Of a stretch of 64,000 nucleotides of DNA, positions 1 to 39,484 are shown piece after piece; position 1 is the stretch's first letter; each line of letters starts with the position of its first letter. Under the pieces are notes generated by a model. It was not told the DNA's origin. It ran no database searches and saw only the letters and a list, made by a program, of their open reading frames with translations. The DNA is from Octopus vulgaris (lineage: Eukaryota): NCBI GenBank assembly GCA_951406725.2, contig OX597821.1, forward strand, positions 118,792,001 through 118,856,000. The letters are read 5' to 3'. The translations under genes were made by a program, and so were the position numbers.

Positions 1-173
1 TCTGCTAGAAGTAGTAGTCAAATCCACCACAATTCACACTTTGTCACCTTAAAGAAGAATACACTGGACAATGTTTTTCTGGCTCGTCTACATGAAGGAT
101 AAAGACAGGATGGTCATGGCTAGAATGCGTTTGATCATAGATCACTGTTTGGTTGACATGAAACTAAACATTT

Positions 174-373
174 TCATGGAAATTCACTGTCTAGATAATT
201 TACTGCGTCAGTACAATCAAATAACTTAAGAGCATTTCTGAGTGTTTCGTGTTTCTTTCGATCACATCTCTTGAACCATCTGTTGAGCATCTCGAATCTC
301 TGTTCATTAGTATCCTTTGGACAGTCACTGATGATAGTTTCCAGCTCAGTTTGTTTAATTCCTAATTCCCTTC
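174..373 (-). CDS. Terminal exon, rest of the death domain ([33 protein letters not shown]...[23 protein letters not shown])
   Basis: Acceptor ttttgcag. Death-domain pattern GR.LG.....I..D.P....EQ..EML..W......L..AL......D....L, stop TGA at 174-176. Confidence 0.88.
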
Positions 374-3300
374 CTGCAAAACATACAAAAATAATAAATA
401 ATTGCAACAACATTAAGAATAAAATAAGAGATGCATATTGCAGATTGTAATAAATATAACAACGATATTATATCGGGAGAGAAATTTAAAAAATAGGTAA
501 GAAAAATGAAAAATATTAGACATTGTTCTCTATTTCTAGGAATGGTGATTAAAAGATAACAAAGAAATTGAAATAAAGGATTGAAATGGAGAAATGTTTT
601 AAAAAGTATTGAAAATTACATTTGAGAGAATTTCTGGTAAAGAGATGGCAGGGAAAATGATTGTGTGGGTAATAGCGTATGAGAACCTAAAGAATCTATT
701 AATATCACTCAAAGAGTCACATTATCTCATCCATCTATCCATTTTCTCTACCCTCTATTCATAAAAGGGTTGTGGGGGTAGAGTCGCCAGGGAACCCCCT
801 TCAAAGTTACTTTCATATTACTGTCCAGTTGGATTCTCAAGCTTGACCAATTCTTTCTTGTGACAGTCTAATCTCATGTCCATAGAACTGGAATTGAGAC
901 CCCTCAATTCAGGGAAATAGTAGCTCAACCTGGAGAGACTCCCAACTCTCTGAGCTGTGCACCTCCTTTTGAGTAACAGATACCATTTAAAGGAATCCCA
1001 TTTCAGCTGCTTTGAATCATCACCTGATCAATACCTGGAATAGTCATCAGTGATGTCTCTCCTACTTCTACTCTCACTAATTAACAATTAAAATATATCA
1101 ACATTTAGAAATAACTTGAACTATCAATACCAGTAATATTAGGTACACCTGGACCAATTAAAATACAAGTGAGCATGACACCAAAATGACCTTAATTACA
1201 CAAAATACAAAATATAATACTGTTAGGTACACAACACATATTTTAAAAGACACCAACTTAACCATGTTGGGTTCATGACTCGTAATAAGGATTTCTTTTA
1301 CTGGACCAATGCCACAATTTAGAGAGAATCCGATAATGGAGAGGTTTTAGAGTAAAGCTAGCAAAGAGAAGAGTTTTAGTTTTGTACGAAAGAAGTTTTG
1401 TAGGAAAGAAGACGGGGTCACAACCATCTACACCATACACATGTAGACGCTTAGGGACTGAAGGAATCACTGCATCTACCAACCTCTACATCATCTGGGG
1501 AAGTTACCATATTTCATAAAAAGGTAGAAGGGGTTAATAGGGATTCTATACTGTGTATTCAATGCACACAATGGGAGATCTGGGGTCAGAGGTAGGTTGA
1601 TGGAGAGGAAGGAGTTTGTGAGTAGTAGATATACAGGAATAGTTAGTTGTAAGAATAACTGTGAAAGGCATGGACGAGAGTTTCTGTTACCTAGGTGACA
1701 TAATTAGGAGTGGGAGAGACTACTCTGAAAGTAAGGTGATTAGAGAAAAAGCTGAGGTGGCAAAATGTACATGGAGCTGTTATCCCTACTGACAAATAAA
1801 GAATTCTCTTTCTGAATGAAGGGTAGATTGTATGATGTATATTTGTAAAGTGCAGCGATGCATTGAATGTGGAGGATGTATGAAAACTGGCAAGAAATGA
1901 GGTGAGAATACTTCACGAGAAATGTAATGTTAGTGTATTGGAATGCTGGAGAAAAGATGAGCTGGAAGAAAAACTGGGTCTCAGTAGAATCAGGGAATAA
2001 TGGGAAGTTTGTATAAATCATACTTTCTGTTCTTACCCATTCACACAAAGAGAAATGGAATATTGTGATGTTCATGATTTCTAAATGATATTTGTATTGT
2101 AAAGGGTGAGGAAAAAATGTCAAATAAGAAATGAAATCCAGTTAAGTTTACCATATTTTAACATGTACAAGGAACCAATTTTTGTTTAAAATTAGGTTTA
2201 AAAAGTATGGGAGCTTCTTATACATGGATAGCATTATAATCCCTTACAAAACCTTATTGCCAAATTTTACGCCTCAAAATTTAAAACAAGGTAATATTTT
2301 TATAATTTCTGTTTTGTTTTATAATTTGTGTTTTGTTTCATTAACTTACAGCGCGGAGTTCAATCCACACGCAAAAACAATCAAAAATGGGGCCTGTCAA
2401 TTTAGAGACAAGACTATATGCTGACCTGGGGCTATAACAAGAGTAAAAAACAAACTGGTCAGGCGAGGGGCTACAACATGTCACACAAGAGGCACACTCT
2501 TGGGTTAACGACGTTGCATTTGATAATGAGATCCTCTTCTCCTAAGAGAAAGAATGATGCCGCACCCGGAACACTTTTCTTCTGAAGATTAAGGCAGATA
2601 TCTACCACAACCATGACAACAACAACCTACCAGTGAACAAAGTAAAAATCTAAAGAAACGAAACCATTGACATTAACTCACCTGTTTGTACATAAACAAC
2701 AACATATTTTAGATCCCTATTTTAAAAGAGAATATTAAATCTTTTGTGGCTTCAAATTAATCCATTTTACCAACCATGCAAACCTTGATTTTATGAAGTT
2801 TCTTCAATAGAATTACTTTGCAGTTAAACTTTCAATTGGAAATTAAAAGAATGGAAACTGTTCTCAATCATTCTAACAAACAGAAGCTCAAGTGAAGCCA
2901 AAATTTCAAAAAATCAATTAGGTATTAAATGCTCACCAACAAAACGCCAGTTACTCCCTAACTTCGTTGCCACTATATTGAGATGATTCTCCTCCAGTTT
3001 AACAGACTCTGAAAATAAAATATTTCCAAATTTTACACATCAAAATTTAATTTCTCTTTCTCTTTTATTAATGGTCTATATTTTGGCATTGTTATTCACA
3101 TCATCAACGGTCAACTGGTGGCCACTATGGGGTTCGACAGCATTTTTATACTTACCATAGTGACCCCATCTAATGACACAATGTTAAGGTCCACACCAGA
3201 ATGGACTAATCTTCATTTCCCTATTAAGATATCCTCTGTAATCAAATAATCTAGTACATATACCTGTTGAACCTCGCATTATTGCATTGAAACTACCTGA

Positions 3301-4234
3301 AATGGTTCAGCAGAAATGGGACTCAAAACATTATAAGCAAGATGAGGATATAGACCAAGCTGCAAGAACCAGATCTTGTATTTGTACAGTGCTTTTGACT
3401 TAACGATCGCTTTAAACCCATTCTCAGTTCGTGCCATGGTGCATAGCATATTCGTAAGCTTCTTATTGGTTTGTCTTTAACTTTTGGAATCGTTTCTCCT
3501 ACTACTTTGAACTCCACTTGCTTCTCAGGTCCTTTGACAAATGAATGTATTAATTAATTGCCTTAAAACTCCTCCTTGGGCAAGTGATTGATCCATACTG
3601 TCTACCCACAACTATATGTTAGAATTGTAATATCGTCCACCGTTGCCATCTTAGGCGATTCAATTTGAGCCATTTCTTCTGGTAAATATGCTAATCTAAG
3701 TAATATCTCCATAACAGACCCAAGCCAGATGACTGACATTTGGCAACCTGCAGCAATTCCAAGCCGATGCCAGTCTGTTGTGAAACATTCTGATGTCTGC
3801 CACATCTTGAAATTGGTACAAAAGCCCCTCATTAGATTGTCAATGTTCTCCAGTGTATAAAAGAAGTCCACTGCTTCCATCAACAAATCCTTTGGTAGAG
3901 GCCCATGAGTGTTTGCCAGATCAATTTATACAACATTGAAATCTTCTTGAGGATATGACAAAGGTCTTACTGGTTGGGCCACATCAAAATACTCCCAGGA
4001 CCATTAAAGAAGTGGTTGGTGTTAGGAAGGGCATGCCACCGGTGAAAAGCTGGAATGTCTTAAGTGAGAGATATTCTTCCACCAACGAATAAGAGCTGAC
4101 CAGGACAGTGACCACCCATCTAAAGCATGAGAGTATGGAAAACATGATTAATGATGAGTACAATATCATTGATTGTATTGAATCTTGTAGCCAAAATCTG
4201 TTTTGAAGAAAGAGAGAGAGAGAGAGAGAGGGGG

Positions 4235-4276
<42 letters not shown>

Positions 4277-6467
4277 CTTTGCTTATCTCAGTAGCAATCC
4301 AAACTCTTCTACTTTGATAAGAACAATGGATGTATTAAAAGATTTAGTATCAGTGAAGCAAAGACATGGGAATTGCTTTTGGAACACTTTTCATCTTAGG
4401 TCCACCAGATTATGTCAGACATCTGACTGAACAAAAACGGCAGCAACAACAACAAAAACAACAACAGCAACATCTGTAACCTTAGTAAAAGTGTAAAGAA
4501 AGAAAGGTCACTGACATTAACTCACCTGTTTCTACATAAACAACAACATATTTTAGATCCCTATTTTAAAAGAGAATATTAAATCGTTTGTGTCTTCTAA
4601 TTAATCCATTTTACCAACCATGCAAACCTTGATTTTATGAAGTTTCTTCAATAGAATTACTTTACAGCTAAACTTTCAATTGAAAATTAAAAGAATGGAA
4701 ACTGTTCTCAATCATTCTAACAAACAGAAGCTCAAATGAAGGTAACATTTCTAAAAATCAATTAGGTATTTTATACTTACCATTTTGCTGGTATTTACTC
4801 CCTAACTTTGTTGACTCTCCTTGAATATGCTTTTTCTCTAGTTTAATAGACTCTGAAAATAAGATATTTCCAAATTTTACTCATCATACTTTAATTTCTC
4901 TTTCTCTATTAATAGTCTATATTTTGTCATTGTTATTCACATCATCAATGGTCAATTGGTGGCCACTATGGTGTTGGACAGCATTTTTATACTTTCCATA
5001 GTGACACCATCTAATGACACAATGTTAAGTTCCACACCAGAATGGTCTAAACTTCATTTCCCGATTAAGATATCCTCCGTAACCAAATAATCTAGTAATT
5101 ATCACAGTTAATTATCACTTGATGTCACTGTTCTCTTCTTCGTTTTGTCTTTCTTTACTTATATCTGTGCCAAATCAATGACCTTGTCCTCACATCTCTA
5201 GACTTCACTAACCAGCATTCTTCTTGCTGCTTAATTCCAATGTCAACCAACTTAGTTCTGCAAAGGTCTTACCACAAACACATGTCACACTATTTCAAGT
5301 AGGATAAACACACACCTGATCTCTTTGTTGAAGGTTGTTGGTTGCAATTTTTAATTTTCACTGAACACATCACACTTCACCAGAATGTTCTCTGACTCAA
5401 GATATATCTGAAGACATTACAATGCTAGTCAGCTTCTCTGATAATTCTACCTAGGTAGAGCAGAAGACGATGACAGGTATCTTAAACCCCCAGTACACAT
5501 GCACAAAACCTCACCAACTACATATATCTGTTGATCCTCGAGTTATTGCATTGAAACTACTTGAAATGGTTCAGAAGAAATGAGACTCAAAACATTATAA
5601 GCAAGATGAGGGTATAGACAAGCTGCATGCACCAGATCTTGTATTTGTCCAGTGCTTTTGACTTAACTATTGCTTTTAACCCATTCTCAGTTCGTGCCAT
5701 GGTCCATAGCATATTCGTAACATCTTATACGTTTAACTTTTGGAATCGTTTCTCCTACTACTTTGAACTTCACTTGCTTCTCATGTCCTCAGACAAATGA
5801 ATGTATTAATCAATTGCCTTAAACCTGCTCCTTGAGAAAGTGATTGATCCATACAGTCTACACACACATATATGTTAGAATTGTAATATCGTCCACCGTT
5901 GCCGTCTTAGGCGATTCCATTTGAGCCATTTCTTCTGGGAAATCTGCTAATCTAAGTAACATCTCCATAACAGACCCAAGCCAGATGACTGACATTTGGC
6001 AACCTACAGCAATTCCAATTTCAAGACGATGCCAGTCTGTTGTGAAACATTCTGATGTCTGCCACAACTTGAAATTGTTACAAAAGCCTCTCATTAGATC
6101 GTCAACGTTCTCCAGTGTATAAAAGAAGTCCACCGCTTCCATCAACAGTTTCTTTGATAGAGGCCCATGAGTGTTTGCCAGATCAATTTATACAACATTG
6201 AAATCTTCTTGAGGATATAACAAAGGTTTTGCTGGTTGGGCCAAAGCAAAATGCTCCCAGGCCCTTTTTAGAAGTGGTTGGTGTTAGGAAGGGCATGCCA
6301 CCAGTGAAAAGCTGGAATGTTTTAAGTGAGAGATATTCTTCAACCAACGAATAAGAGCTGACCAGGACAGTGACCACCCATCTAAAGCATGAGAGTTTGG
6401 AAAACATGATTAATGATGAGTACAATATCATTGATTTTATTGTATATTGTAGCCAAAATCTGTTTTG

Positions 6468-6534
<67 letters not shown>

Positions 6535-8776
6535 TGCTTATCTCAGTAGCAATCGAAACTCTTCTACTTGGATAAGAACATTGGATATATTATAAGTTTC
6601 AGTATCAGTGAAACAAAGACATGGAAATTGCTTTTGGAACACTTTTCATCTTTACTCCACCAGATTAAGTCAGACGTCTGACCGAACAAAAACAGCAACA
6701 ACAACAAAAACAACAACAACAACATCAGTAACCTTAGTAAAAACGTAAAGAAAGGAGAATCATTGACATTAACTCTCCTGTTTATACATAAACAACAACA
6801 TATTTTAGATCCCTATTTTAAAAGAGAATATTAAATCGTTTGTGTCTTCTAATTAATCCAATTTACCAACGATGCAAACCTTGATTTTATGACGTTTCTT
6901 CAATAGAATTACTTTACAGCTAAACTTTCAATTGGAAATTAAAAGAATGGAAACTGTTTTCAATCATTCTAACAAACAAAAGCTCAAATGAATGCAAGGT
7001 TTCTAAAAATCATTTAAATATTTTATACTTACCGTCTTGCTGGTTTTTACTCCCTAACTTTGTTGACTCTCTTTGAATATCATTCTCTTCCAGTGTTAGA
7101 GACTCTGTAAATAAGATATTTCCAAATTTTACACATCAAACTTTAATTTCTCTTTCTCTTTTATTAATGGTCTATATTTTGTCATTGTTATTCACATCAT
7201 CAATTGTCAACCGGTGGCCACAATGGTTTTGGACAGAATTTTTATACTTTCCATAGTGACCCCATCTAATGACACAATGTTAAGGTCCACACCAGAATGG
7301 TCTAAACTTCATTTCCCGATTAAGATATCCTCCGTAATCAAATAATCTAGTAATTATCACATTTAATTATCACTTGATGTCACTGTTCTCTTCTTCGTTT
7401 TGTCTTTCTTCTCTTATATCTGTGCCAAATCAATGACATTGTCCTCACGTCTCTAGACTTCACTAACCAACATTCTTCTTGCTGCTTAATTCCAATGTCA
7501 ACCAAGTTGGTTCTGCAAAGATATTACCACAAACACATGACACACTACTTCAAGTAGGATAAACACACACCTGATCTCTTTGTTGAAGGTTGTTGGTTGT
7601 AATCTTTAATTTTAACTGACCACATCACACGTCAACAGAATGTTCTCTGACTCAAGAAATATCTGAAGACATTACAATGCTAGTCAGCTTCTCTGATAAT
7701 TCTACCCTTTTGGAGCAGAAGACGATGACAAGTGTCTTAAAACCCCCGGTACACATGCACAAAACCTAATCAACTACATATATCGGTTGATCCTCGAGTT
7801 ATTGCACTGAAACTATTTGAAATGGTTCAGAAGGAATGAGACTCAAAGCATTATGAGCAAGATATGATATAGAACAAGCTGCATGCACCAGATCTTGTAT
7901 TTGTCCAGTGTTTTGACTTAACTATTGATTTAACCCATTCTCAGTTCGTGCCATGGTCCATAGCATATTCCTAAGCTTCTTATAGGTTTGTCTTTAACTT
8001 TTGGAATCGTTTCTCCTGCTACTCTTAACTTCACTTGCTTCTCATGTCCTCTGAAAAATGATTGTATTAATTAATTGCCTTAATCCTCCTCCTTGAGCAA
8101 GTGATTGATCCATACAGTCTACCCACAACTATTTGCCTATCGTCTTCGTCTCATGTTAGACTTGTAATACCATCCACCATTGCCATCTTAGGTGATTCCA
8201 ATTGAGACATTTCTTCTGGGAAATCTGCTAATCTAAGTAACATCTCCATAACAGACCCAAGCCAGATGACTGACATTTGGCAACCTACAGCAATTCCAAT
8301 TTCAAGACGATGCCAGTCTGTTGTGAAACATTCTGATGTCTGCCACAACTTGAAATTGTAACAAAAGCCCCTCATTAGATCGTCAACGTTCTCCAGTGTA
8401 TAAAAGAAGTCCACCGCTTCCATCAACAATTTCTTTGGTAGAGGCCCATGAGTGTTTGCCAGATCAAGGCATACGACATTGAAATCTTCTTGAGGACATG
8501 ACAAAGGTTTTACTGGTTGGGCCACAGGAAAATGCTCCCAGAAGCATTCTAGAAGTGGTTGTTGTAAGAAGGGCAAGCCACCAGTGAAAAGCTGGAAGTT
8601 TTTAAGTGAGAGATAATCTTCAACCAACGAATAAGAGCTGACCAGGACAGTGACCACCCATCTAAGCATGATAGTATGGAAAACATGCTTAATGATGAGT
8701 ACAATATCATTGATTGTATTGAATCTTGTAGCCAAAGTTTGTCTTGAAGAAAGAGAGAGAGAAAGAGAGAGAGAGG

Positions 8777-8822
<46 letters not shown>

Positions 8823-11800
8823 CTTTGCTCATCTCAGTAGCAATCGAAACTCTTCTACTTTGATAAGAACAATGGATGTATTAAAAGATTTAGTATCAGT
8901 GAAAGAAAGCCAGGGAAATTGCTTTTGGAAACACTTTTCATCTTTAGTCCACCAGATTAAGTCAGACGTCTGACCGAACAAAAACAGCAACAACAACAAA
9001 AACAACAACAACAACATCTGTAACCTTAGTAAAAATGTAAAGAAAGGAGAATCATTGACATTAAATCTCCTGTTTATACATAAACAACAACATATTTTAG
9101 ATCCCTATTTTAAAAGAGAATATTAAATCCTTTGTGTCTTCTAATTAATCCATTTTACCAACCATGCAAACCTGGATTTTATGAAGTTTCTTCAGTAGAA
9201 TTACTTTACAGCTAAACTTTCAATTGGAAATTAAAAGAATGGAAACTGTTCTCAATCATTCTAACAAACAAAAGCTCGAATGAAGGCAAATTTTCTAAAA
9301 ATCAATTAGGTATTTTATACTTACCTTCTTGCTGGTATTTACTCCCTAACTTTGTTGACCCTCTTTGAATATCATTCTCTTCCAGTGTTACAGACTCTGT
9401 AAATAAGATATTTCCAAATTGTACATATCAAACTTTAATTTCTCTTTCTCTTTTATTAATGGTCTATATTTTGTCATTGTTATTCACATCATCAATGGTC
9501 AACCGGTGGCCACTATGGTTTTGGACAGCATTTTTATACTTTCCATAGTGACCCCATCTAATGACCCAATGTTAAGTTCCACACCAGAAAGGTCTAAACT
9601 TCATTTCCCGATTAAGATATCCTCCGTAATCTAGTAATTATCACATTTAATTATCACTTGATGTCACTGTTCTCTTCTTCGTTTTGTCTTTCTTTTCTTA
9701 TATCTGTGCCAAATCAATGGCCTTGTCCTCACGTCTCTAGACTTCACTAACCAGCATTCTTCTTGCTGCTTAATTCCAATGTCAACCAAGTTGGTTCTGC
9801 AAAGATCTTACCACAAACACATGACACACTACTTCAAGGAGGATAAACACACACCTGATCTCTTTGTTGAAGGTTGTTGGTTGTAATCTTTAATTTTAAC
9901 TGACCACATCACACATCACAAGAATGTTCTCTGACTCAAGATATATCTGAAGACATTACAATGCTAGTCAGCTTCTCTGATATTTCTACCTAGGTAGCGC
10001 AGAAGACTATGACAGGTGTCTTAAAATCCCCAGTACACATGCACAAAACCTCATCAACTACATATATCTGTTCACCCTCGCATTAATGCACTGAAACTCC
10101 TTGAAATGGTTCAGAAGGAATGAGACTCAACCATGCTGCAAGCACCAGATCTTGTATTTGTGCAGTGCTTTTGACTTAACTATTGCTTTTAACCCATTCT
10201 CAGTTCGTGCCATGGTCCATAGCATATTCCTAAACTTCTTATAGGTTTGTCTTTAACTTTTGGAATCGTTTCTCCTGCTACATTGAACTCCACTTCTTCT
10301 CATGTCCTTTGACAAATGAATGTATTAATCAATTGCCTTAAACCTCCTCCTTGAGCAAGTGATTGATAAATACAGTCTATCCACAGCTATTTGCCTATCG
10401 TCTTCGTCTCATGTTAGACTTGTAATACCATCCACCATTGCCATCTTAGGTGATTCCAATTGAGACATTTCTTCTGGGAAATCTGCTATTCTAAGTAACA
10501 TCTCCATAACAGACCCAAGCCAGATGACTGATATTTGGCAACCTACAGCAATTCCAATTTCAAGACGATGCCAGTCTGTTGTGAAACATTCTGATGTCTG
10601 CCACAACTTGAACTTGTTACAAAAGCCCATCATTAGATCGTCAACGTTCTCCAGCGTATAAAAGAAGTCCACTGCTTCCATCAACAATTTCTTTTGTAGA
10701 GGCCCATGAGTGTTTGCCAGATCAAGTCATACAACATTGAAATATTCTTGAGGATATAACAAAGGTTTTGCTGTTTGGGCCACAGTAAAATGCTCCTAGG
10801 ACCATTAAAGAAGTGGTTGGTGTTAGGAAGGGCAAGCCACCAGTGAAAAGCTGGAATGTTTTAAGTGAGAGATATTCTTCAACCAACCAATAAGAGCTGA
10901 CCAGGACAGTGACCACCCATCTAAAACATGAGAGTATGGAAAACATGATTAATGATGAGTACAATGTCATTGATTGTATTGAATCTTGTAGCCAAAATCT
11001 GTCTTGAAGAAAGAGAGAGAGAGAGAGAGACTTTGCTCATCTCAGTAGCAATCGAAACTCTTGTACTTGGATGTATTAAAAGATTTAGTATCAGTGAAAG
11101 ACAGACATGGAAATAGCTTTTGGAACACTGTTCATCTTAGGTCCACCATATTATGTCAGTTATCTGACCGAAGAAAAACAGCAGCAACAACAACAAAAAC
11201 AACAACAACAACATTTGTAACCTTAGTAAAAATATAAAGAAAGAAAAGTCACTGACATTAACTCATCTGTTTATACATAAACAACAACATATTTTAGATC
11301 CCTATTTTAAAAGAGAATATTAAATCCTTTGGGTCTTCTAATTAATCCATTTTACCAACCATGCAAACAAGATGAGGATATAGACCAAGCTGCAAGCACC
11401 AGATCTTGTATTTAACTATTACTTTTAACCCATTCTCAGTTCGTGCCATGGTCCATAACATATTCCTAAACTTCTTATAGGTTTGTCTTTAACTTTTGGA
11501 ATCGTTTCTCCTGCTACATTGAACTCCACTTGCTTCTTATTTCCTTTGACAAATCAACGTATTAATTAATTGCCTTAATCCTCCTCCTTGAGCAAGTGAT
11601 TGATCCATACAGTCTACCCACAACTATTTGCCTATCGTCTTCGTCTCATGTTAGACTTGTAATACCATCCACCATTGCCATCTTAGGTGATTCCAATTGA
11701 GACATTTCTTCTGGGAAATCTGCTATTCTAAGTAACATCTCCATAACAGACCCAAGCCAGATGACTGATATTTGGCAAGCAACAGCAATTTCAAGACGAT

Positions 11801-12245
11801 GCCAGTCTGTTGTGAAACATTCTGATGTCTGCCACATCTTGAAATTGTTACAAAAGCCCATCATTGGATCGTCAACGTTCTCCAGTGTATAAAAGAAGTC
11901 CACTGCTTCCATCAACTATTTCTTTTGTAGAGGCCCATGAGTGTTTGCCAGATCAAGTCATACAACATTGAAATCTTCTTGAGGATATGACAAAGGTTTT
12001 ACTGCTTGTGCCACAGTAAAATGCTCCCAGGACCTTTTAAGAAGTGGTTGATGTTAGGAAGGGCATGTCACCAGTGAAAAGCTGGAATGTTTTAAGTGAG
12101 AGATATTCTTCAACCAACGAATAAGAGCTGACCAGGACAGTGACCACCCATCTAAAGCATGAGAGTTTGGAAAACATGATTAATGATGAGTACAATATCA
12201 TTGATTTTATTGAATCTTGTAGCCAAAATTTGTTTTGAAGAACGC

Positions 12246-12282
<37 letters not shown>

Positions 12283-15200
12283 TTTGCTCATCTCAGTAGC
12301 AAACCAAACTCTTGTACTTGGATAAGAACAATGGATGTATTAAAAGATTTAGTATCGACGAAAGAAAGACATGGAAATTGCTTTTGGAACACTTTTCATC
12401 TGAAGTCTGTGAGAATATGACATCTGGCTGAACAATAACAAAAATAAACTCTTAGAAAATTTAAAACAAACGAAAACCTTGTGAATACTCGTTCGTTTAC
12501 CCTTAAACAGCAACATATTTTATTTCCCGATTCCAAAAGACAATATTAACTCTATTTTGTCTAAACTCATTTCTCCATATTACCAAACTCAGAAGATATG
12601 TGATGAGATTTCAGTAATATTTTTAAGATTATTAATTTACATAAGAATGATCATAAATATGGAATGCAAATGTTATTCAAACCATGTAGCAAGTGTTGAT
12701 TATATATGGTTACAAACAAGGAGTTGTGTGTTCGAATCACATCAGGAATTCCTATTTTATTCTTCTTTGTATATTTTATACGTGAACATAAATACTTTGT
12801 TTATATGTAAACATATGTTCACAGTTCAATAAAATTAATTTAACGATCAATATTTTAAATGTTCTTTTAGTTATCACAACAATATATGTCCTAACCTGAG
12901 ACATTCCGGGTACGTACCCTAACAAGCGATGACATCTCAGATCAAACAGTGGACTAATATTATTGTTTAGCATTTTCATAACATGATAAATCATGAAGAA
13001 TTTCTGGAGGATAATTTTGCAAAATATGTTGAAACTGTCGATGCCATCTTTCACCAAATAAACATTCACAGCAACACAAAACAATTCATTAAGCAAAACA
13101 ATTAATTAAGCAACCAAAGCCTCTAATGTTTTTCTTTAACCGCTCAGTTGAGATTTTCTCATTGAATCTCCTATTTTACAAAAATCATTCTGATGTTCTC
13201 GTTACTAACACTGTCTTTATCAGATACTGATAAATACTGATAAATCATTAATCCCCTCTAATCACTCGCAATTGACTGTAAAAACATGATATTTACTGAG
13301 GGAATCTGGCAGTTTTATTAATATTTCTGTTAGTCGCCGTTTAACTTGCTCTATCACTCATTAGTCTTATCTTGCAAACAGTATCCTCTTGAAGTGAATC
13401 AAACCTTGTATTTGGACGAAGACGAAGTTTGGTGGATGAGGTGATTGATAAAGTATCACAAAGAAAAGACACTGTTATCATAAATCTGCTACATTTATGA
13501 CAGGTGTGACTCTATATAGTAACATGAAGTATATTATTCAACAGCATAAAGTCAATGAGACAAACAGACAGATCATCAAATAGTATTCTTACCGAATCCA
13601 CGTTTGTCAACTATAACTTGTTGACACTTGGGACAATTTTTAGGCTCATTTTCTGAACAGCAATCTTTGCATGTAACAGTGTGCTCACATGGTTGAAACG
13701 TCACTGTAGCTTCACTAGATTTACACAGCAGACATCTGTTGAACAAAACATAGAGACATATCACTGATAACATTCATTTATAACAAATATTGCATTGAGT
13801 ACATGTTTAGAGTACAGAATATTATGAGACACTGCTAGGACCAGTAAAAGTACATAAAAATATCTTCGTTAAAAAATTACGTAAATGCAAATGTTTTTGT
13901 ATATGAATTCTACGCTCACACGTGTATGTGTGTGTGTGTGTGTGTGAGGCATTCACATACATATTGTTAAATATATGTCTTGACTCTGGAACATCACAAA
14001 AAATTGCTTTACACACAACGAGCTACATATATTCCAGAAACATACTTCAATTCTTGTAGAGGGACAATTTCTTCTGAACAAAACCTAATCTGTTTAACAA
14101 GTTCTCTAAACGTAGACAATTCCTTTTGAATTGTATGGATGGACAGATAGAATACAATTGCCCTAGCTTCTTGTATTTGTGAACAATGTGTTACAAACCA
14201 GGCCACAGTTCAATAATAAAACAATGCCCCAAGCAACATGTCTGATATGCACATACCAAACCTGAGGATAGTTTTGAAGACTGATGAGTTGAATGCAATG
14301 AATGACAGCTTTCTATCTGCCTTCAATGCACAACTAATCTCTTGATGATCCCAGTCTAAGAAAAAGGTAAAAAATTGTTCTATGATGGATGGGATATAGA
14401 AAACAGCCCAACTACCAAACTGGTCCTTTCAGTGCCTGACCTGTGTGTCTTTTCCAACCATGGCTGTCAAACAAAAACAACCCATTCACAGGGAAATTGC
14501 GGATATCTGACGTAACATATATACAAACAAAAACACCTTACAGAATTGCACAAATGCTCTGCATCCAAACCCGCCCCTAGTTAAAGCTGAATCCAGGTTT
14601 ATAGAGAAGGCCATGTTATCTGCCATACATGATGTAATAATGTTTTTGGTGCATCTGAAGAAATCATTGATTTATAAACATTTTCTCTACAACTTGTCCA
14701 CATCAAATGTGTTCCTCCAAAAACATGTTCTCTGCTTCATTAGATTGAATCATAACCAAAATTAATTAGATTAACCTTCTACTGAGGCATGTGCATACTG
14801 TCTAGCTTCTAATGAGGCAGAGTGTGACTATTGAATATTTTGTTGAATCTATTTGTACGGGGGAAGTGCTTATTTACTAAGCTAAGAAACATCTTACTCG
14901 GGTTTTAACACTTAAAGAGAAATTGCAGAGTGTGGTATAACAATCAACACAACCAACCAATCATGTGAATGTAATCAAAATAGAGTTCTTCGACTGTATT
15001 TTCTATTTCTTGTTCTTCTTACAGTTGTTGTGTGGTCTTTGGTCAAAACACAGAATAACGTATTGGGAGGATTAAAACTAAACAAAACATATGAACATAA
15101 TTGCGTACAAAATAAAAAAAATTCTCTGCTTTGTCTTGTCATTGTTAGAGAATACTTACAGTGGTGGTGGGAAAAGCGTTTTAATTCTTTCCTTTAAATT

Positions 15201-15848
15201 TGTATCCTTTATAAGATCCAGCGGCATCATATTCCGTTTGTTTCTGTGGTAAAAGTTGGCTCCATTGTCGGCCAGATAACAAGCCACTGCTAGGCTTGAA
15301 AGCTTGCCTCCTTTGCTAAGCTGGAGCTTCTTGTAGTACTTCAAATGATGGAATATAAAAAAGACAAGTACAATATTACACAAATATAAACAAAATCATA
15401 ACATCAAGTCAAATACAAGAAATATAATGGAAATTATATATGTTAAAAATAACAGAGAACACACAGACTTATCCAAATATATCAACAATGTTTCCATAAT
15501 TAATAAAGAAACATCTTTGGATGATGAAGGTGAAGTAAAAGAAGTAAGAATTGGTGTCACGGTTGAGGAAACACACCAACACATTCTAGTTGATAAACTG
15601 TTGAAACTGTTAGTCTGACAGACAATTCCAGTAATGGAGGGAGAAGGGCATTTGACTGCCAGAATAGCTTCTTCGTATCAAAGTGGACATTTCCACAACA
15701 CAAAGATGACCATCAAATGTCTGAAATACAGTCACAAATCTGTAGAGACCGTTACTCATGTGGGAATCAGTGAGTTGCTTCAAGTGCGCAAAATTTGACT
15801 GTAAATACTGTTAGATCTACTGATGGTTAGATGTTGATGTATTTGTAT

Positions 15849-15892
<44 letters not shown>

Positions 15893-15999
15893 ACACAGTA
15901 AGTAAACAAATGACAGAGACACTCAACCAATTCATTGGAAGTTACATGTATGGATCAAAACAGTTTGGATCATTAAACTATTTTGATCCATATATATTG

Positions 16000-16045
<46 letters not shown>

Positions 16046-16371
16046 ACATATAAGGGATGGCCATATTAGGACATCCGACTCACTAGAAAGAGCAGTTAAA
16101 CTCCAAACCACTAATATCGGGTAAACGTTTTTATTTCTCTTTCCATTTCAGAATTACAACTATTAGTGGTTTGGAGTTTAACTGCACTTTCTAGTGAGTC
16201 GGATGTCTTATTATGGCCATCCCTTATATGTTTGAATGTATATTATATAGTCTATTGACTATATTTTCTTTCTCACTTGAACGCTGGTAGCGGAGAATTT
16301 TTTTGCTACCCTAAAATTTATTAATTAATAAATATAAATAAATGAATATATATATATATATATATATATAT

Positions 16372-16455
<84 letters not shown>

Positions 16456-16703
16456 CATATATACTTATATATGTATATATATTATATACTCTATTACTCT
16501 TTTACTTGTTTCAGTCATTTGGCTGCGGCCATGTTGGAGCACCACCTACAGTCGAGCAAATCGACACCTGGACTTTTTCTTTGTAAGCCCAGTACTTATT
16601 CTATCGGTCCCATTTGCCGAACCGCTAAGTGACGGGGACGTAAACACACCAGCATCGGTTGTCAAGCAATGCTAGGGGGACAAACACCGACAGACAAATC
16701 ACT

Positions 16704-16783
<80 letters not shown>

Positions 16784-16947
16784 TACGACAGGCTTCTTTC
16801 AGTTTCCGTCTACCAAATCTACTCACAAGGCATTGGTCGGCCCAGGGCTATAGCAGAAGACACTTGCCCAAGATGCCAGGCAGTGGGACTGGACCCGGAA
16901 CCATGTGGTTGATAAGCAAGCTACTTACCACACAGCCACTATGTATA

Positions 16948-16983
<36 letters not shown>

Positions 16984-18060
16984 TGTATGTATGTATGTAT
17001 GTATGTACGTATGTATGTATATTGCTTTATTGTATCCATTGTCTAGTGTTCTAACATTCAATATTGTTATGGCACGTCCATAAGAAGCCAGAGGATACAT
17101 GTTGTGTACAAGAAGTAAGACAGGGAGCTGTTTTTTCAGAATCCCTCATAGAATGGAATGGATGTATTTATCATGGCACTTGCATTCTAAAGGTTGTCAT
17201 CATGTCTCTCTGTTTCTCTTTCTATCTCTTATAAATAAATCCACACGTATATATTTACAAATAATTCTAAAACTTACCTTATCCAAGACTGTTAAGGATT
17301 CATCCTCAGAATGGAACTCCTCTTTCCTCACCGCAAGGTGAAGACAATTGTTTCCGATATCATCGACCACATTTACGTCTGCTCCTTTAGAAATGAATTC
17401 CTGCATTATTCTGAAGTTGCCGCAAGAGACAGCTTGAAGAAATGGTGTTATACCATCCCAGTTTGTTATGTTCAATTTCACCGAATCCTTTGTGGAAGTA
17501 AAAATAGAGAATGAAAATTTACATGAAAACCAGGGTGGCTATCAATGTGTCATTACTGCCTTCTACTGGGTACTTGATCAAACCGATCACGTACATTTCA
17601 TGTTTGTCAGTAAAGTTAGCCTTACATAAGGTCCCTCTATAACTTGCTATGAGTGTGTTTAAGAGACATGATAAATCTATTTAGATGTCATAAACAGATT
17701 GGTTCAGCCTAATCTATGTTTATCCCTCGCTATAGTAAGTTTTAAGGGAGTTAAACTGCACTGAGCACAAGATTAATGGATTAAGCTTGGGAAAGAAGAA
17801 CTATACGACTTTTTCTCTACATTTGATGTTAATATATTAATAAGGGGCTCAGAATAGTTATATGTATATATATAGTTATATATATAGTTATATATATATA
17901 TATATATATATATATCATCATCATCATCAAAATATAGGAACAGCCATAATAGGCTGTTCAACCTACTAGAAATAGCAGCCAAGGCTTAAACCGCAAACAA
18001 GTATTAATTCCCAAAACCAGGAGAAAATTTTAAAAAAACATTTACCCTGATATATATATA

Positions 18061-18111
<51 letters not shown>

Positions 18112-21100
18112 CTATATATATACATATATGTCAAGAAAATCGCACAGATATACACATGGTGTGTGTGTCTTGTTAGTTCATGGGCTGGTTGCATTTTTAG
18201 GTGTGAGAGAATATATTATCAATGCGTCTGGCGTTTGAAACACCTGAAAGTAAGTCATAAGCAATCAAGGCAACTCACATCATATGTATGTATGTATCTG
18301 TGGTATAGCTTTAAAGAGATTTGTTATGTCAGGGTGGAACAATGTGAGAAGGTACAAAGTAAACTACAAATGGAAAAGGGTGGACTGGGTGCCCCAGGTC
18401 GAGTGCTTTTTCGTGGCACCAGCACCAGCAGGGTGACCAAATAACTTGCAAGACAAAGGAATGAAACTGAGGGAAGTGGCTGTGTACCAGGCAGGAGGTT
18501 TGACCATGATAGGTGGGAGCAGAGATAGTTCTCTTATTATAGAGGAAATTCTTGGCTGCCTCAGTAGGACAAGGAAGGAGAAGGGAAGGGGGAGTTAGGG
18601 AGAAAATAGAGAGATAGAAATAGATGGTGGTACAGATGTATTGGGGCCTACACTAGGTGAATGGTGGGTAGGTGGAGTATAAGTATTACAAATGAGATAG
18701 GGGGTGATGTATCATAAGAGTGTGAGGGAAGATGTTTAGAGATGGGGAGGAGGGGACTGTAGCAAATGATGGAGGGAGAAACTGGAGTGGCTGGGGAGGT
18801 GGGGTATTGGTAGATAATGTGGGGGGTATTGAATGCAGATAGGCATCTGAGGTAGAGTGGAGGGGCCTGCAGCAGGTGATGATCACGGGTAGTGGGATGG
18901 GAAGTTGTTGGGAGGATGGGTCGTGAAGGTGTTTGGAGATTGTATGTAAGATAATTTCTCATAACTTTGTTCCACATCTTCCTGGATCAACCTCGCCCAC
19001 AGTTTCGCTCCACAATAAGAGATCAGCGATTTTTATGCAACCGTCCTCATTCATACACATCACATGGCCGTGCAAACGCAGTCTTCTCTCTTGCACACAA
19101 CGTCTGAGACCTCTTATACCCAAGTTTTCTCTTAAATCTTTTACAGTTTGTAGTATACATGCACATACATACATGCATGCATACATATATACATACATAC
19201 ATATATACATACATACATACATACATACATACATACATACATACATACATGTATACACATTTATATACACAAACACACATACAGCTGATATTTCTCTAAA
19301 TATCGTAGTCAGTTGACAATAGAGAGAGAAGTTTAATTAAAAAATAACAAATTAATTAGTTATAAATATACCAACCATTTTTCAAATTAATTTATGACAT
19401 AAATATATTTCTCACTTATCAAATCACAACAATTCTTCATTTTATTATATTTTTCAGTGATGGAGAAGAACAATTGCTTGTTTGGTTCATGTTCTTCAAC
19501 TAGATTTGGTATCCTATGGCATTACAGCTCAGCTATAATTTGATGGTTTTAACATACAGGCTGACAATTGTAATATATTTACCTATGTTGGTGTATTTTA
19601 TGGATTTGAGGAGAAATATATTCATGTGAGGGTTTGTGTATTTATGTGTGTGTGTGTGATATATATACATATATATATCATCATCATCATCTTCATATCA
19701 TCATTGTTTAACATCCGTTTTCTATGCTGCTAGCATGGGTTGGGCATTTCGACTGGGGTCTGGGAAGCCAGGAGACTGCACCAGCCTCCATTTTGGTCTG
19801 GCAGTGTTTCTACAACTGATAACCTTCCTAATGCCAACCATTCCGTGAGTGTAGTGGGTCCTTTTTACATGCTACAGCAAGCTAGCAACGGTCACGATCG
19901 AATGGTGATTTTTACTTGCCACCGACACGGAGCCAGTCAAGGTGGCACTGGCATCAGCCATGTTCAGAGAGTGCTTTTTGCATGCCACTTGCATTTCCAT
20001 TTGATTTTCACTTTGATGTTGATGTACTTGACTCAACAGGTCTCTTCGACACAGCAAATCACCCTACGATCCAAGGTACTTCTAAATGGGCTGCGGCTAG
20101 TTACACGAAACTGGTGTAGGATACAGCCATGAATTCATATTATTTGCTGGGTATTCACAGTCATAGGATATCTCCAGAGGTCCCGGTCTTTCGTCATAGC
20201 CTCTGTGAGGCCCAACGTACGAAGGTCATGCTTGACCACCTCATCCCATGTCTTCCTGGGTCTACCTCTACCCCAGATTCCTTCAACTGTTTGGGCGTGG
20301 CATTTCTCTCAAGGCACTTATATTATGTCGTGTGTGCACACTGACATTACACATCCAGCGGATCATGCTAGCTTCATTTCTTTCGAGCCTACACATGTCC
20401 TCCGCAATCATGGTCCATGTTTCACTGCCGTGAAGCATGGCAGTTCGCACACATGCTTTGTACAATCTACCTTTCACTCTGATTGAGAGGCCCTTTGTCA
20501 CCCGTAGGGGTAGAAGCTTTCTAAACTTTGCCCAGGTTAGTCTTATTCTAGTGGTGACACTCTCAGAGCATCAACCTCCACTTCTAACTTGGTCACTTGG
20601 GTAGCGGAAGCTATCAACTACATCTAGTTTCTCCCCCTGGAGTGTGATAGAATCTGTTTTCTGAGCATATGTGGTGTTTATTGCACCTGTGCATCTGCTG
20701 CACACGAAAGCTATCTTCCCGCTTAATCTTCCTTTGATGTTGCTGCACCTCTAACATGTCCATAGCTTACACTGGGTACGTCTTATGGAGTTTCTACCTA
20801 CACCTTTTCTACAGATCGAGCAGAGCCACCTACCTGAAGAGGTGTGTGGTGAGTTTGCCTTACTACTAGAACTTTGGTCTTTGCGACATTGACTCCAAGA
20901 CTCTTTGATTTTAAACCTTGCTTCCACACCTGAAATTTCTTCTCTAGTTCTGGTAGTGATTCTGCTATGAATGCCAGGTTATCAGCATTCTTCACTATAG
21001 TCATTGCCAATCCTAACTTTACTAACGGCCTCTCTGTACAGGGCCTGTACAGCCCTTATTAAACATTCGTCAATCTCCAGTTTCCTCATCGCCCACCAGA

Positions 21101-21985
21101 TAAGGCTTTCTCCAAGTTCACAAAATCTAAGTATAGAGGTTTATCTTTGGCTAGGTATTTCTCCTGCAGTTGTCAAACCAGGAATATAGCATCATTGGTG
21201 CTTCTACCTGGAACAAAACCAAACTGCTTCTCATCTAAGTAGACTCTCTCCCTGATGAGGTGGGCTATGACCCTCTCCGTGCCCTTCATCACCTGATCCA
21301 GCAGTTTGATACCTCTGTAGTTATTTCTATCTAGAGCATCACCTTTACCCTTGTAGCAGTTGACTATAGTGATGCTATGCCAGTCGTTGGGTATGTCTCC
21401 ATTATGAACTACCTGGTTTACAATGCGGGTGACTAGGCCATAGCCCACACCACCAGATATTTTAAGCATCTCAGCAGTGATTCCTGATGGGCCGGGGGCT
21501 TTTCCTGGCTTCATACCCTTAATTGCTTTATCTACCAGGGAGATGTCTATTCGAATAGCTGCTCCCTCTAAGGGTCAACATTTGGCAGGCTCTCCTCCTA
21601 TTCATTCTCCACGTTTAGCAGCCTTTCATAATGGCTTCTCCAAGCCTCTTTCTTTTCCGAATCGTTAAAAAGCAAGTGCACAATCATCCATGCAGACACA
21701 TTTCTCTCCTGTGACATCACAATTTTCTCTCACACACTGTCTTGCAATCCGAAATACTTCAGTTCTTTGGTGCTCATGTCGCTGAACATTGGCAAACTTC
21801 TTCTTTTCTGCTTCGCTCTTGGCTATGTATACCTGTCGCCCAGCCTCTCTTTTGGTTATCCGCAGACTTGGTCTGTGGCACTCAGCAAGCTGTCCTGTAA
21901 GAATTTCCTGCTAGCTTCTATGTCCGAGGACTGTAGTTCCTCCTCTCCCTCTCATCAAATTTCTTAATGAGGATGTCCTAAATCA

Positions 21986-22057
<72 letters not shown>

Positions 22058-25000
22058 TCTGTACAGTGCCAATACCTAGAGTAGAGTTTGGTGCAGTCTT
22101 CTGACTAACCAGCTCCTATCAAAACGTCCAACCCATGCCAGCATGGAAAATGGACGTTGAATGATGATGATGTTGATGGTAGTGGTGGTGGTGGTTGTGG
22201 TGGTGATGGCGAATGGCAGACATAAAATGTGATATATTTGGGTTAATTTCATAATAATCTTGTACACATTTCGTATAATCTAGTCATTAAAAATGGTATT
22301 GTCTGTGGTGGTGGTCAGCTGAACTGTCACCACACCATTACCATTACCATTATTATCATGTTCCTCCACATACCCTAGACCTGTCATTTAAAGGTTAGTG
22401 GGGTACAGCTGATTAAATCTACCCCCAGCATTTCACTGGTACTCTGATAATGTCAATATTGAACAGATCAATAAAATACAAGAGAGTGTATATAATATGT
22501 ATATGTCAACTAACCTGGGATAGAATCAATGCCACGACATCATAGTTTTGCCTAAAAATTATAGAAAAAAGAAAGAAACATAGAAAATATGAAAATCATA
22601 GAGGTTGAGATAATTAATAATTATTAGGTCATTAATTAATGAAAATAGATGTAATGAGCTACCTAAAACCTGTTTACATCAATAATTATATAGACGCACA
22701 TAAATATAATCGATATATACACTCTAACCAGTTGATTATTCATATATACACATCTGAATAAACACCACAATGTTTTCTATGGTACAACGAACAGCAAGTT
22801 GACCTCAGCAGGATTTGAACTCAGAATGCAAAGTGTTGTAAATACATACCAACAGTAATAAGAAACAGGAAGAGGAAAGAATCATTGAATATTACTGTTT
22901 GATATTAAATGACCCTCTAGATATCACTGGTATAGATTATATTGACCCCAGAGTGACAATAGATACTCTGGCATTATTTGAACTTGGAGCATAAAAAACA
23001 AAAGTAAATCCTGTAAGGGGGTGGTTCTGTCATTTAACCTAGGGTCAGAGGAAAAAGGGACATTATAAGAGGAGGAGGGAGAGAGAGAGAGTATGAGAGA
23101 GAGAGAGAAAGAGAGAGTAATTGGGGGTTTTACGTGGAATCAAACAAAGAAGACAAAGGATTTGAATCTGTAATGTTGTGGTATGGGGGATGAGGTGGAA
23201 TAATGGATTTAGTCAGGTGACAAGAACAAGAATAACAATAATTATGGGGACGATTAATTAATGCTGTAGATTACAGTGTCATTACACTATGAGAGAGAGT
23301 AGAAGGTTGACCCATGGTGGGAATAGGATATGATTGAGTCAATAAAACAAAACATTATTGAAAGGTAAGAAAGAGATTTGGATATTCCAGATCCAATGAG
23401 GACTTACCTGACAACTGCCAGATGTAGCGGAGTGTCACCAGATTTATTTATCATACGGACGTCAATGTCAGATTTCTTCAACAGATGTTTAACAACCTCT
23501 GTGTGACCATCAGCACTGGCCAGATGTAATGGCGTTTCACGATCATTATTCGCCGAATTTACGTTAATGCTAGACTGCTTCAGTAGATGTTCAACAACCT
23601 GTAGGTGTCCCTTCATAGAGGCGAGATGTAGTGGTGTGTTCCGATCATTATCCTCAGCATTTACATCAACATCAGACTGCTTCAGTAGATGTTCAACAGT
23701 CGCTAGGTGTCCACGAGCGGAAGCCAGAGATAGAGGTGTGTCACCGTCCTTATTCTTTACGCTGACGACCATTCCAGATCGCTGCAGTAGAAGTTTAAAA
23801 GTCTCTGGCTGTCCATTTATACATGCCCGATGTAAAGCTGTGTTGCCGTCTTTATTTTCCATACGCACGTCAATGTCGGACTTATTCAACAAATGTTTAA
23901 CAGTTTCTGTGTGACCATCAGCACTGGCCAGATGTAATGGCGTTTCACCATCATTATTCGCGGCATTTACGTTAATGCTAGACTGCTTCAGTAGATGTTC
24001 AACAACTTCTAGGTGTCCCTTCATAGAGGCGAGATGTAGTGGTGTGTTCCGATCATTATCCTCAGCATTTACATCAACATCAGACTGCTTCAGTAGATGT
24101 TCAACAGTCGCTAGGTGTCCACGAGCGGAAGCCAGAGATAGAGGTGTGTCACCGTCCTTATTCCTTACGCTGACGACCATTCCAGATCGCTGCAGTAGAA
24201 GTTTAAAAGTCTCTGGCTGTCCATTTATACATGCCCGATGTAATGCTGTGTTGCCGTATTTATTTACCATACGGACGTCAATGTCAGACTTCTTCAACAG
24301 ATGTGTAACAACCTCTGTGTGTCCATTAGCACTGGCCAGATGTAATGGCGTTTCAAGATTATTATTCGCCGAATTTACGTTAATGCTAGACTGCTTCAGT
24401 AGATGTTCAACAACCTGTAGGTGTCCCTTCATAGAGGCGCCATGTAGTGGTGTGTCCCGATCATTATCCACAGCATTTACATCAACATCAGACTGCTTCA
24501 GTAGATGTTCAACAGTCGCTAGGTGCCCCTTCATAGAGGCGAGATGTAGTGGTGTGTTCCGATCATTATCCTCAGCATTTACATCAACATCAGACTGATT
24601 CAGTAGATGTTCAACAACCTCTAGGTGTCCACGATCGCAAGCCAGAGACAGAGGTGTGTTACCGACCTTATTCTTTACGCTCATGACCATTCCAGATTGC
24701 TGCAGTAGAAGTTTAAAAGTCTCTGGCTGTCCATTTATACATGCCCGGTGTAATGCTGTGTTGCCGTATTTATTTACCATACGGACGTCAATGTCAGACT
24801 TCTTCAACAGATGTTTAACAACCTCTGTGTGTCCATCAGCACTGGCCAGATGTAATGGCGTTTCACGATCATTATTCGCCGCATTTACGTTAATGCTAGA
24901 CTGCTTCAGTAGATGTTCAACAACCTCTAGGTGTCCACGAGCGCAAGCCAGAGATAGAGGTGTGTCACCGTCCTTATTCTTTACGCTGACAACCATTCCA

Positions 25001-28000: not shown

Positions 28001-29434
28001 CTAAGGTGAACACATACTACAGGGGCCTTGTGCCAACAAGCTTCGAGGTTTGATGATACGCTGTCAAGCTAAACGCTTTATGGACGTGAAACCCAGGGTA
28101 ATCTCATAGACCGGCCTTATATATCTTTATATACATATGTGTGTGTGTGCTTATTTCGCTTTTTGGATTTGGTTTGCAAGGTTCTTTATGTGAGTTAGTG
28201 TGTTGAAGCATATTTTGTTGTGTCTGGAGAGAGATTCATTCTCTTTTCGTCCTTTATTATTTAATCCCTTCACCGATTAGGTTTCCACTCATTCACTTAT
28301 CTACTTTTAAAAAGATTTTCGTTGCGTCTTGTAAATTTTCAGTAGTCGTTGACACAGTTATCCGAGCTGCGCTCTTTTTGCATGTTTAGGTGCATATGTG
28401 TAGGTCAGTGTGCGTGCGCATACACATATTATGTATGTGTGTATGTATGTAAGTATGCATGTATGTGTGCGTATGCATATATGTATGTATGTGTGCATGT
28501 TTGTATCTATGTATTCTGCATGTTCATGTGTTTGTGTGTTCGTGTTGTTGGTGTTTGTGTGCTTGCATGTGTATGTGTGTGTGTGTGTGTATGTGTGTAC
28601 CTCTGTCTCATTGTGTGTGCATGTCTGTGTGTGTTTGTGTTTGGGTTTTTGTGGCTATGTACTGCATCTGTTATGTATGGATGTGTGCATCCATGTGTGT
28701 CCTTGTGTGAAGTGAAGTATGTGTGTGTATGGTCACGTGTTTCAGTCTTTATATTTGCGTACGTATGTGTATACGCGTGCTTGACTGTTCATATTATAGC
28801 CAGATAGGTACATAGGTAATATGAACAGACACACACACATGCACACATACATACGCAAATGAAGACTGAAACACGTGACCATATACACACACACACACAC
28901 ACTTCACTTCACACAAGGACACACATGGAGGCACACATCCATACATAACAGACGCAGTACATAGTCACACAAACCCATACACAGACACACTCAAACATGC
29001 ACACACAAGGAAACGGAGGTACACACACACACACACTCCCACACATATACACACGCACACACAAACACATGACTGGGCAGAATACGTACATACAAGCGTA
29101 CATATATATATATATATATACATATATGCGTATACACACATGATGTATACAAACACATACATGCATACATATATATAGCGGCGTACGTACACTGTTCTCT
29201 TATATGTAAGTATATATACGTACATATGTACATGCGTATGCAGAGTGGCCCCCACACATGGACATAAACAAATAAAAAGGACACGGCTCGGATAACGGGC
29301 AGAGTTAACGCCTATTGAGAAGGTTGCAAGACAACGAACATTTTAGAAAAAAAATAAAGAAGTGAATGAGTCGAAACTTAACCGGTGAGTGTGTTAAATA
29401 ATAAGGCACTAAAAGAGAATGACTCTCCCCCGAC

Positions 29435-29529
<95 letters not shown>

Positions 29530-39210: not shown

Positions 39211-39446
39211 ATCTGTAAAATAATGTGACAATTATTCAATAGCCAAGATAAAACACTGAGTTTCAGATGCCGAGGTGGAAATCCACAACACGATCTCTTC
39301 GGTTATCTGGTCATCTATATTCTATGTTCCTTCTATATTTCAGTCATTTCAGATAACCGAAGAGATGGTGTTGTGGATTTCTCCCTCGGCATCCGAAACT
39401 CAGCGTTATATCTTGGCTATTGGATAATTGTGACATATTATTTTAC

Positions 39447-39450
<4 letters not shown>
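39211..39450. repeat. Inverted repeat, ~100-bp arms with 40-bp spacer, just 5' of the Penelope ORF
   Basis: atctgtaaaataat...ctcttcggttatctg (39211-39309) pairs with cagataaccgaagag...attattttacagat (39350-39450). Confidence 0.9.

Positions 39451-39480
<30 letters not shown>

Positions 39481-39484
<4 letters not shown>

Follow-up and report, generated by a model that had tools for sequence, protein, structure and literature searches.

What becomes of an exon that encodes part of a folded domain when it is copied in tandem within its own gene? The question is raised by a 64,000-nucleotide stretch of the Octopus vulgaris genome (assembly GCA_951406725.2, contig OX597821.1, positions 118,792,001 to 118,856,000; hereafter the window). 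Its minus strand carries a gene for a protein with ankyrin repeats, a RING and a death domain (DD), in which four homologous exons, E1 to E4 counted from the most 3ʹ, lie between the RING exon and the last exon (Table 1). We consider it rather probable that E2, E3 and E4 are tandem copies of the first DD exon, E1, that were stripped of buried hydrophobic residues, are likely spliced in series into most transcripts, and are predicted to form a flexible 72-residue spacer between the RING and the DD.

Each of the four exons is 72 nt long, is preceded by AG and followed by GT, and is open only in the phase 1-1 frame, the other two frames containing stops. The preliminary description of this locus had proposed four such exons, and its coordinates and peptides all match on the minus strand. 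It had also argued that any subset of these symmetric exons could be spliced; from the RING exon to the last exon, the reading frame is indeed preserved in 16 of 16 subsets. E1 supplies the first quarter of the DD (~22 N-terminal positions of the Pfam Death model, PF00531), since the Pfam match of the last exon takes up positions 23-82 of 86 (26.5 bits, above the cut-off of 22.6). In P0024, a sister-gene protein that includes exon 1, Death coverage is 2-78 of 86. The hydrophobic core is intact only in E1, as first described.

The exons are carried by the units of a tandem array, which also contain an (AG)n run and a decayed reading-frame fragment. The fragment, which may resemble a non-LTR reverse transcriptase, had no Pfam or PDB match. 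A 301-nt query around E2 has 40 matches in the genome: the four array copies at 85–100% and 36 other places at no more than 79%. Unit-to-unit alignments have 85–91% identity. An assembly artefact had been named as a possible source of the array; units this different are too diverged for an assembly duplicate and, by this comparison, the array is real. The arrangement is that of tandem exon duplication: adjacent homologous exons were copied with their flanks, with equal phase at their ends and intact splice sites.

Are the copies used as exons? Thirteen runs carried part of the last exon and the 3ʹ region, none of them recorded as RNA. We analysed joints from four runs: X1 and X2 from one study, X3 from a second study with the same organism label, and X6 from another organism. 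Among the best 15 of 56 joints, canonical joints in X3 connect RING to E4 (9396/13593, depth 97, short side 72 letters), E4 to E3 (7104/9325, depth 163; also X1, depth 3.7), an E4-like end to E2 (4852/9325, depth 315, 25 letters), E2 to E1 (3008/4781, depth 396) and E1 to the last exon (372/2936, depth 314). We read 4852/9325 as E3>E2, because E3 receives a depth of 163 plus that of an intron-containing contig at 100, and has no other exit among the joints listed; skipping of E3 could also produce it. Because contigs of relatives, guessed to be RNA, connect each exon to the next in this way (with E3 or E4 as the partner of E2), the polar copies are real exons. The joints fit a single chain, RING>E4>E3>E2>E1>last, i.e. 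serial inclusion. Of the earlier proposal of cassette exons, the use of the polar copies as exons is borne out by these canonical joints; junctions solely from 13593 to 3008, an outcome that would have refuted it, were not what we found. Free cassette use gains no support from joints that fit one chain, and the predicted ladder in 72-nt steps did not appear in the contig joints.

Direct RING>E1 joints do occur (X2, depth 11.4; X3, depth 98.5), and they carry a variant at 3001. The X2 depth equals that of a contig of 1056 nt which, over 100-372, has 33 other letters and 8 gaps; in the same runs, altered letters at 2974-2975 and an insert ahead of the RING match P0024 (hand reading). Because their variants match this annotated protein, whose gene has one exon 1, these joints are, on sequence grounds, those of the sister gene and not skipping in the array gene. 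Two further observations concern the same contigs. In contigs of a sister gene, additional letters stand between the RING and the ankyrin exon that precedes it (window 13735/15151), with matching extra residues in P0024, which suggests an upstream acceptor. At window position 248, window-like contigs in X3 and X6 hold six extra letters; the window DD is two codons shorter.

Table 1. Features of the host gene and the exon array, in window coordinates
Feature	Coordinates	Strand	Details
E1, DD exon 1 with intact core	2937..3008	minus	donor GTGAGC; joints E2>E1, E1>last
E2, polar copy (V13E, W21Y, V24N)	4781..4852	minus	donor GTAAGT; joints 4852/9325, 3008/4781
E3, polar copy (V13E, W21N, V24D)	7033..7104	minus	donor GTAAGT; joint 7104/9325 (X3, X1)
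E4, polar copy (V13G, W21Y, V24E)	9325..9396	minus	donor GTAAGT; joint 9396/13593 (X3)
Tandem array	2604..12586	minus	four exon-bearing units of ~1.8-2.3 kb and an exon-less partial unit, 11365-12586 (self-BLAST)
Last coding exon	174..373	minus	DD remainder and stop codon; Pfam Death 23-82/86, E 7e-6
RING exon, C3HC4_3 type	13593..13735	minus	Pfam PF13920, E 4.5e-9
Upstream ankyrin exons	15160..33821	minus	Pfam Ank; tblastn with relatives; first exon not located
Ankyrin exons	33821-33670/3, 31851-31695, 26622-23408, 22551-22515, 17487-17278, 15338-15160	minus	

What did the copies lose? E1 differs from them at 31–33% of exon sites, compared with 7–11% of flank sites. The commonest ending across 16 paralogous exons is K-W-Q-Q-L/V; hence K20 and Q22-Q23 of the copies, which are the commonest family states, are ancestral as far as the family comparison goes. 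S14 and R12 are also common in these 16 exons. The true losses are V13, W21 and L/V24, invariant core residues that are kept in the DD-type exons compared. The original statement that polar residues replaced IVA and WRFV therefore stands for V13, W21 and V24 only; as worded, the replacement of WRFV is rejected, QQ being ancestral. Taken together, the E2, E3 and E4 peptides are 72% polar or charged, with a net charge of -3.

Polarised against two sister genes, the branch shared by the copies has changes at 6 of 72 exon sites compared with 11 of 385 flank sites (Fisher p 0.037). Four of the six exon changes fall in core codons (p 0.044, a post hoc choice of codons). As a sign of selection, this excess of shared exon and core-codon changes is suggestive only. 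Simple positive selection deduced from exon versus intron divergence was rejected, since synonymous sites are raised too (pS of E1 versus the copies is 0.35–0.41).

Two sister genes on contig C31, C31A and C31B, are collinear with the host gene and have one exon 1 each and no array. Identity between the host gene and the C31 genes is 98–99% in the RING region and 84–93% in most introns. A conflict between that RING identity and the 10% divergence within the array was considered and rejected, as C31 introns differ by 7–15%. In a tree of flanks, E1 to E4 form one group (97/94) that is sister to C31A/C31B and apart from the polar copies on C29. E3 and E4 are the youngest pair (4/72 differences). 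Because all three copies share the core losses, it is likely that one duplication and the core loss came first and two more duplications followed. Around the last exon, the identity of window 1-1800 to C31:763065-765087 and 841016-843152 drops from ~85–91% to 73–78%. A recombination breakpoint near 1310-1521 that swapped the DD last exon is probable and, with last-exon surroundings only 73–78% like the C31 genes, the host gene is by this measure a mosaic.

The recycling of exon 1 is not confined to the window. The genome has at least 66 DD last exons of this ankyrin-RING-DD family, with dense clusters on C29 and C31. We used a profile of exon 1 and flanking sequence to scan 40 intervals upstream of DD last exons, among them that of the host gene. 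The intervals were picked by best score and RING matches and are hence non-random, and many end at 10 kb before a RING. A first exon caller kept only lengths divisible by three; a second, without this filter, set some wrong boundaries and returned 8 exons of 72 nt, compared with 13 by hand count from the first scan. The most 3ʹ unit is a DD-type exon in 39 of the 40 intervals (37 with a full core, two with a stop; hand count). Further upstream, 31 of the 40 intervals contain units derived from exon 1, 95 in total, and none of the 95 has an intact core according to the noisy second caller. The length called is a multiple of three for 82 of these units and off-frame for 13, and two contain stops. 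Paralogs have between 0 and 9 upstream units. Some units no longer have their splice sites or are out of frame, but most have stayed in frame despite deletions to 66, 54, 51 and 36 nt.

Individual paralogs show several stages of this process. In one C29 clade, a single polar 72-nt copy is present in eight of nine genes and forms its own branch in the flank tree, so that decayed 72-nt copies, judged by their flanks, arose more than once. Gene C31C carries two copies that have decayed to different degrees, and in many C29 genes there are 2–8 exons of 51 nt, which lie in units of 166 bp and have flanks alignable to those of exon 1. Residues are shared among paralogs in a patchwork; C31B, for example, has HIQ in common with the copies. 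Two family members, L105 and L110, have a stop codon in DD exon 1 and are probable pseudogenes.

Is the product of a polar copy a spacer? We used a relative, P0016, which is annotated with a polar copy at residues 267-290, as a proxy for the spliced forms of the window gene. In its structure model, residues 277-290 have a predicted local distance difference test score (pLDDT) under 50, and it is the true exon 1, together with the last exon, that forms the DD (~89–97). The polar copy of P0016 is thus predicted to lie outside the confident DD, and the spacer of the window gene may likewise be disordered. On a profile of the family DD, a polar copy joined to the last exon scores 102–108 bits, E1 with the last exon 119.5, and the last exon without exon 1 81.7. 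With scores that high, sequence alone cannot show that a copy fails to fold.

We propose that a symmetric exon and its flanks were duplicated once, which would have placed an unpaired second copy of the first helices of the domain ahead of the DD. There may have been selection against a second intact copy of these helices. With the loss of V13, W21 and V24, the extra copy would likely no longer vie with the true exon over the remainder of the DD. Because the losses are common to all three copies, the copy thus defused would then have been amplified twice, presumably by unequal crossing-over. What results is likely a greater span between RING and recruiting DD, rather than a splice switch, and this may affect ubiquitin transfer to partners recruited by the DD. 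As the family repeats the process, linker length would vary from gene to gene.

Several observations weigh against this explanation. All four runs consist of contigs, are RNA by guess, and come from relatives ~3–4% off the last exon of the window. The joints covered are the best 15 of 56, and contigs drop rare variants. The joints are pairwise only, no contig running across the whole chain, and inclusion of all copies in one molecule is therefore a matter of probability. Four of the five chain joints are at high depth in X3 alone; X6 covers the last exon and has none of the chain joints. Joint 4852/9325 maps to E4, not E3, over 25 letters, at two of which E3 and E4 differ. Intron-containing contigs occur in X3 upstream of E3, at a depth of 100. 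Annotated isoforms of relatives, known from annotation only, point the same way: a sister gene has an isoform lacking DD exon 1 (P0001, annotated as isoform X2) beside P0024 (annotated as isoform X1); P0028 lacks DD exon 1; and O. bimaculoides LOC106878359 has two forms, P0010, in which a nearly intact upstream copy is spliced directly to the last exon, and P0029, which includes both copies.

Sequence divergence also speaks against it. Family exons outpace their flanks, also at synonymous sites and between C31A and C31B (0.15 versus 0.049). This fast divergence at synonymous sites and in sister genes without an array makes selection on the copies harder to argue. The DD exons of the family turn over fast, as these comparisons indicate, and conversion between paralogs is probably behind it. 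Moreover, exon 1 of P0024 is identical to E1 at 18 of 24 residues and has F23 in common with it, whereas the copies keep QQ. The first duplication may therefore predate the split of the P0024 gene, or E1 may have been converted.

An alternative explanation, to which we give a modest chance, is that the copies are tolerated passengers. They would be included only through their symmetry and inherited good splice sites, their core losses would stem from fast exon turnover and conversion between paralogs, and linker length would have no selected role. The raised exon divergence at synonymous sites and in genes without an array, the patchwork sharing of residues, and the range of unit numbers with off-frame units, stops and lost splice sites are all consistent with this. 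However, the shared changes hit invariant core codons, and among the upstream units of the family none has an intact core and most have shortened without loss of frame. The passenger explanation is compatible with serial splicing.

It is less likely, in our view, that the copies form a tunable cassette array whose alternative splicing varies the linker in 24-residue steps between transcripts or tissues. Frame is kept by every subset, joint 4852/9325 at face value is E4>E2 with E3 skipped, and the depth of RING>E4 is far under that of E2>E1. The two annotated forms of LOC106878359 are also in its favour and, because relatives have annotated isoforms that skip or swap exon 1, cassette use may by analogy occur. 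Nonetheless, the 15 listed joints include no RING>E3, RING>E2, E4>E1 or E3>E1, and the RING>E1 joints are those of the sister gene. The donors of the copies (GTAAGT, the consensus) are stronger than that of E1 (GTGAGC). The rise in depth fits 3ʹ bias together with intron-containing contigs that feed in. Such contigs in X3 lie beside array exons at 7077-7706 (depth 100), 9026-9354 (15) and 3038-3349 (15); they may represent slow splicing, intron retention or internal starts, and splicing there may be slow or partial.

A combination of these ideas is equally tentative and, to us, not likely: young copies would pass through a stage at which splicing swaps or drops the first helices, giving variant or decoy DDs, after which selection would strip the core and fix the spacer. 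The array of the window would then be a recent, partly switchable snapshot.

We regard as improbable a decoy isoform, in which E1 is skipped and a polar copy joined to the last exon yields a non-folding or dominant-negative DD, as the preliminary description had suggested. Such joining would be in frame, a sister gene and P0028 have annotated forms without DD exon 1, and a copy with the last exon scores between E1 with the last exon and the last exon by itself. However, none of the 15 listed joints leads from E2, E3, E4 or RING into the last exon (373), the depth of E1>last is 314, and the P0001 and P0028 forms are known from annotation alone. An assembly artefact or unspliced intronic debris is largely refuted, and hence hardly credible, with units 9–15% different and copies linked by canonical joints in runs of two studies.

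How does serial inclusion of decayed domain exons compare with known systems? Most tandem duplicated exons end up in the constitutive isoform (PMC8373072). The octopus exons are similar in being adjacent, homologous, symmetric and joined, at least pairwise, in one transcript. They differ in that the copied exon is part of a folded domain, in that the copies lose the core of the fold and become a spacer rather than a repeat domain, and in that this recurs across one family. In mutually exclusive clusters of the Dscam1 type (PMC8373072), there is likewise an array of homologous exons in an invertebrate gene. In contrast, the octopus copies are joined to each other (E4>E3, E2>E1), which breaks the rule of one exon per mRNA, and their fold is not kept. 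PMC7555362 names hinge exons h1-h4 of IGHG3 and cites work that, by title, concerns an allele with three hinge exons and the triplication of TRG exons. In the IGHG3 hinge and the T-cell receptor gamma constant genes, as in the octopus array, short exons are multiplied in tandem between domains and vary in number. Those genes encode extracellular vertebrate receptors, whereas in the octopus gene, flanking sequence links the spacer exons to an exon of the adjacent domain itself. The immunoglobulin (Ig) hinge itself descends from a decayed Ig domain. MyD88s, a splice form without the linker next to the death domain, is a model for the cassette alternative as a case in which the presence of a DD-adjacent linker alters signalling; its other domains differ. 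In the open-licence literature, we found no title on this octopus ankyrin-RING-DD family, nor any example in which an exon for part of a domain was copied again and again and became a linker within one family.

The host gene is intact, with twelve exons from 33821 to 174 on the minus strand and an open frame of ~1525 codons to the stop. A Pfam scan of its exons gave ankyrin repeats, a C3HC4_3 RING and a DD. The closest proteins are octopus entries annotated “E3 ubiquitin-protein ligase MIB2-like / MIB1-like”. MIB1 and MIB2 likewise have ankyrin repeats and a C3HC4_3 RING, and the nearest relatives of the host gene bear their names, whereas the octopus proteins end in a DD. Mind bomb proteins (MIB1/MIB2) have N-terminal MZM/REP domains and no death domain. 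MZM/REP was not seen in the host exons scanned, which gave only Ank, RING and Death, the first exon not being located; the DD and this domain content argue against an orthologue of Mind bomb. In a fold search with P0016, which was swamped by ankyrins and uninformative on the DD, the MIB1 ankyrin region ranked first. The nearest solved DDs to that of a relative are those of RIPK1, CRADD and ankyrin-3. Word-index protein searches for relatives of greater length found none, which is weak evidence, and an Atlas search returned generic Death and RING neighbours only. That the protein acts in immunity or cell death is a guess based on its domains and the fast evolution of the DD.

Elsewhere in the gene, 31 ankyrin repeats lie within the single exon 26622-23408 (minus strand). 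The repeats have a 102-nt period and higher-order periods of 306 and 408 nt, with up to 99% identity, a sign of recent block expansion. This exon is only ~68% alike between the host gene and its C31 sister genes. The window ends ~49 kb short of the end of its contig (C8), and paralogs L093 and L100 are likewise near contig ends. Decayed frames resembling mobile elements lie at 20300-21900, 39229-41275, 54135-54629 and 63214-63801. There is a weak RVT_1 match at 21176-21574 (E 0.0024, under the cut-off); three other frames tested, 54135-54629 not among them, had no match.

What is the significance of these copies? For the single gene, the outcome is less unusual than the original proposal: a lengthened spacer is likely, rather than a splice switch. 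For the family, one genome offers a traceable series from folded-domain exon to polar linker, with copies that are nearly intact (P0029), half-decayed (C31C), stripped of the core (the window and the C29 clade), shortened to 66, 54, 51 or 36 nt, and re-amplified. This series makes it testable whether flexible linkers arise from selected loss of the core of a duplicated fragment or from drift. Beyond this, it draws attention to a large octopus family of ankyrin-RING-DD genes with fast-changing death domains and variable linkers.

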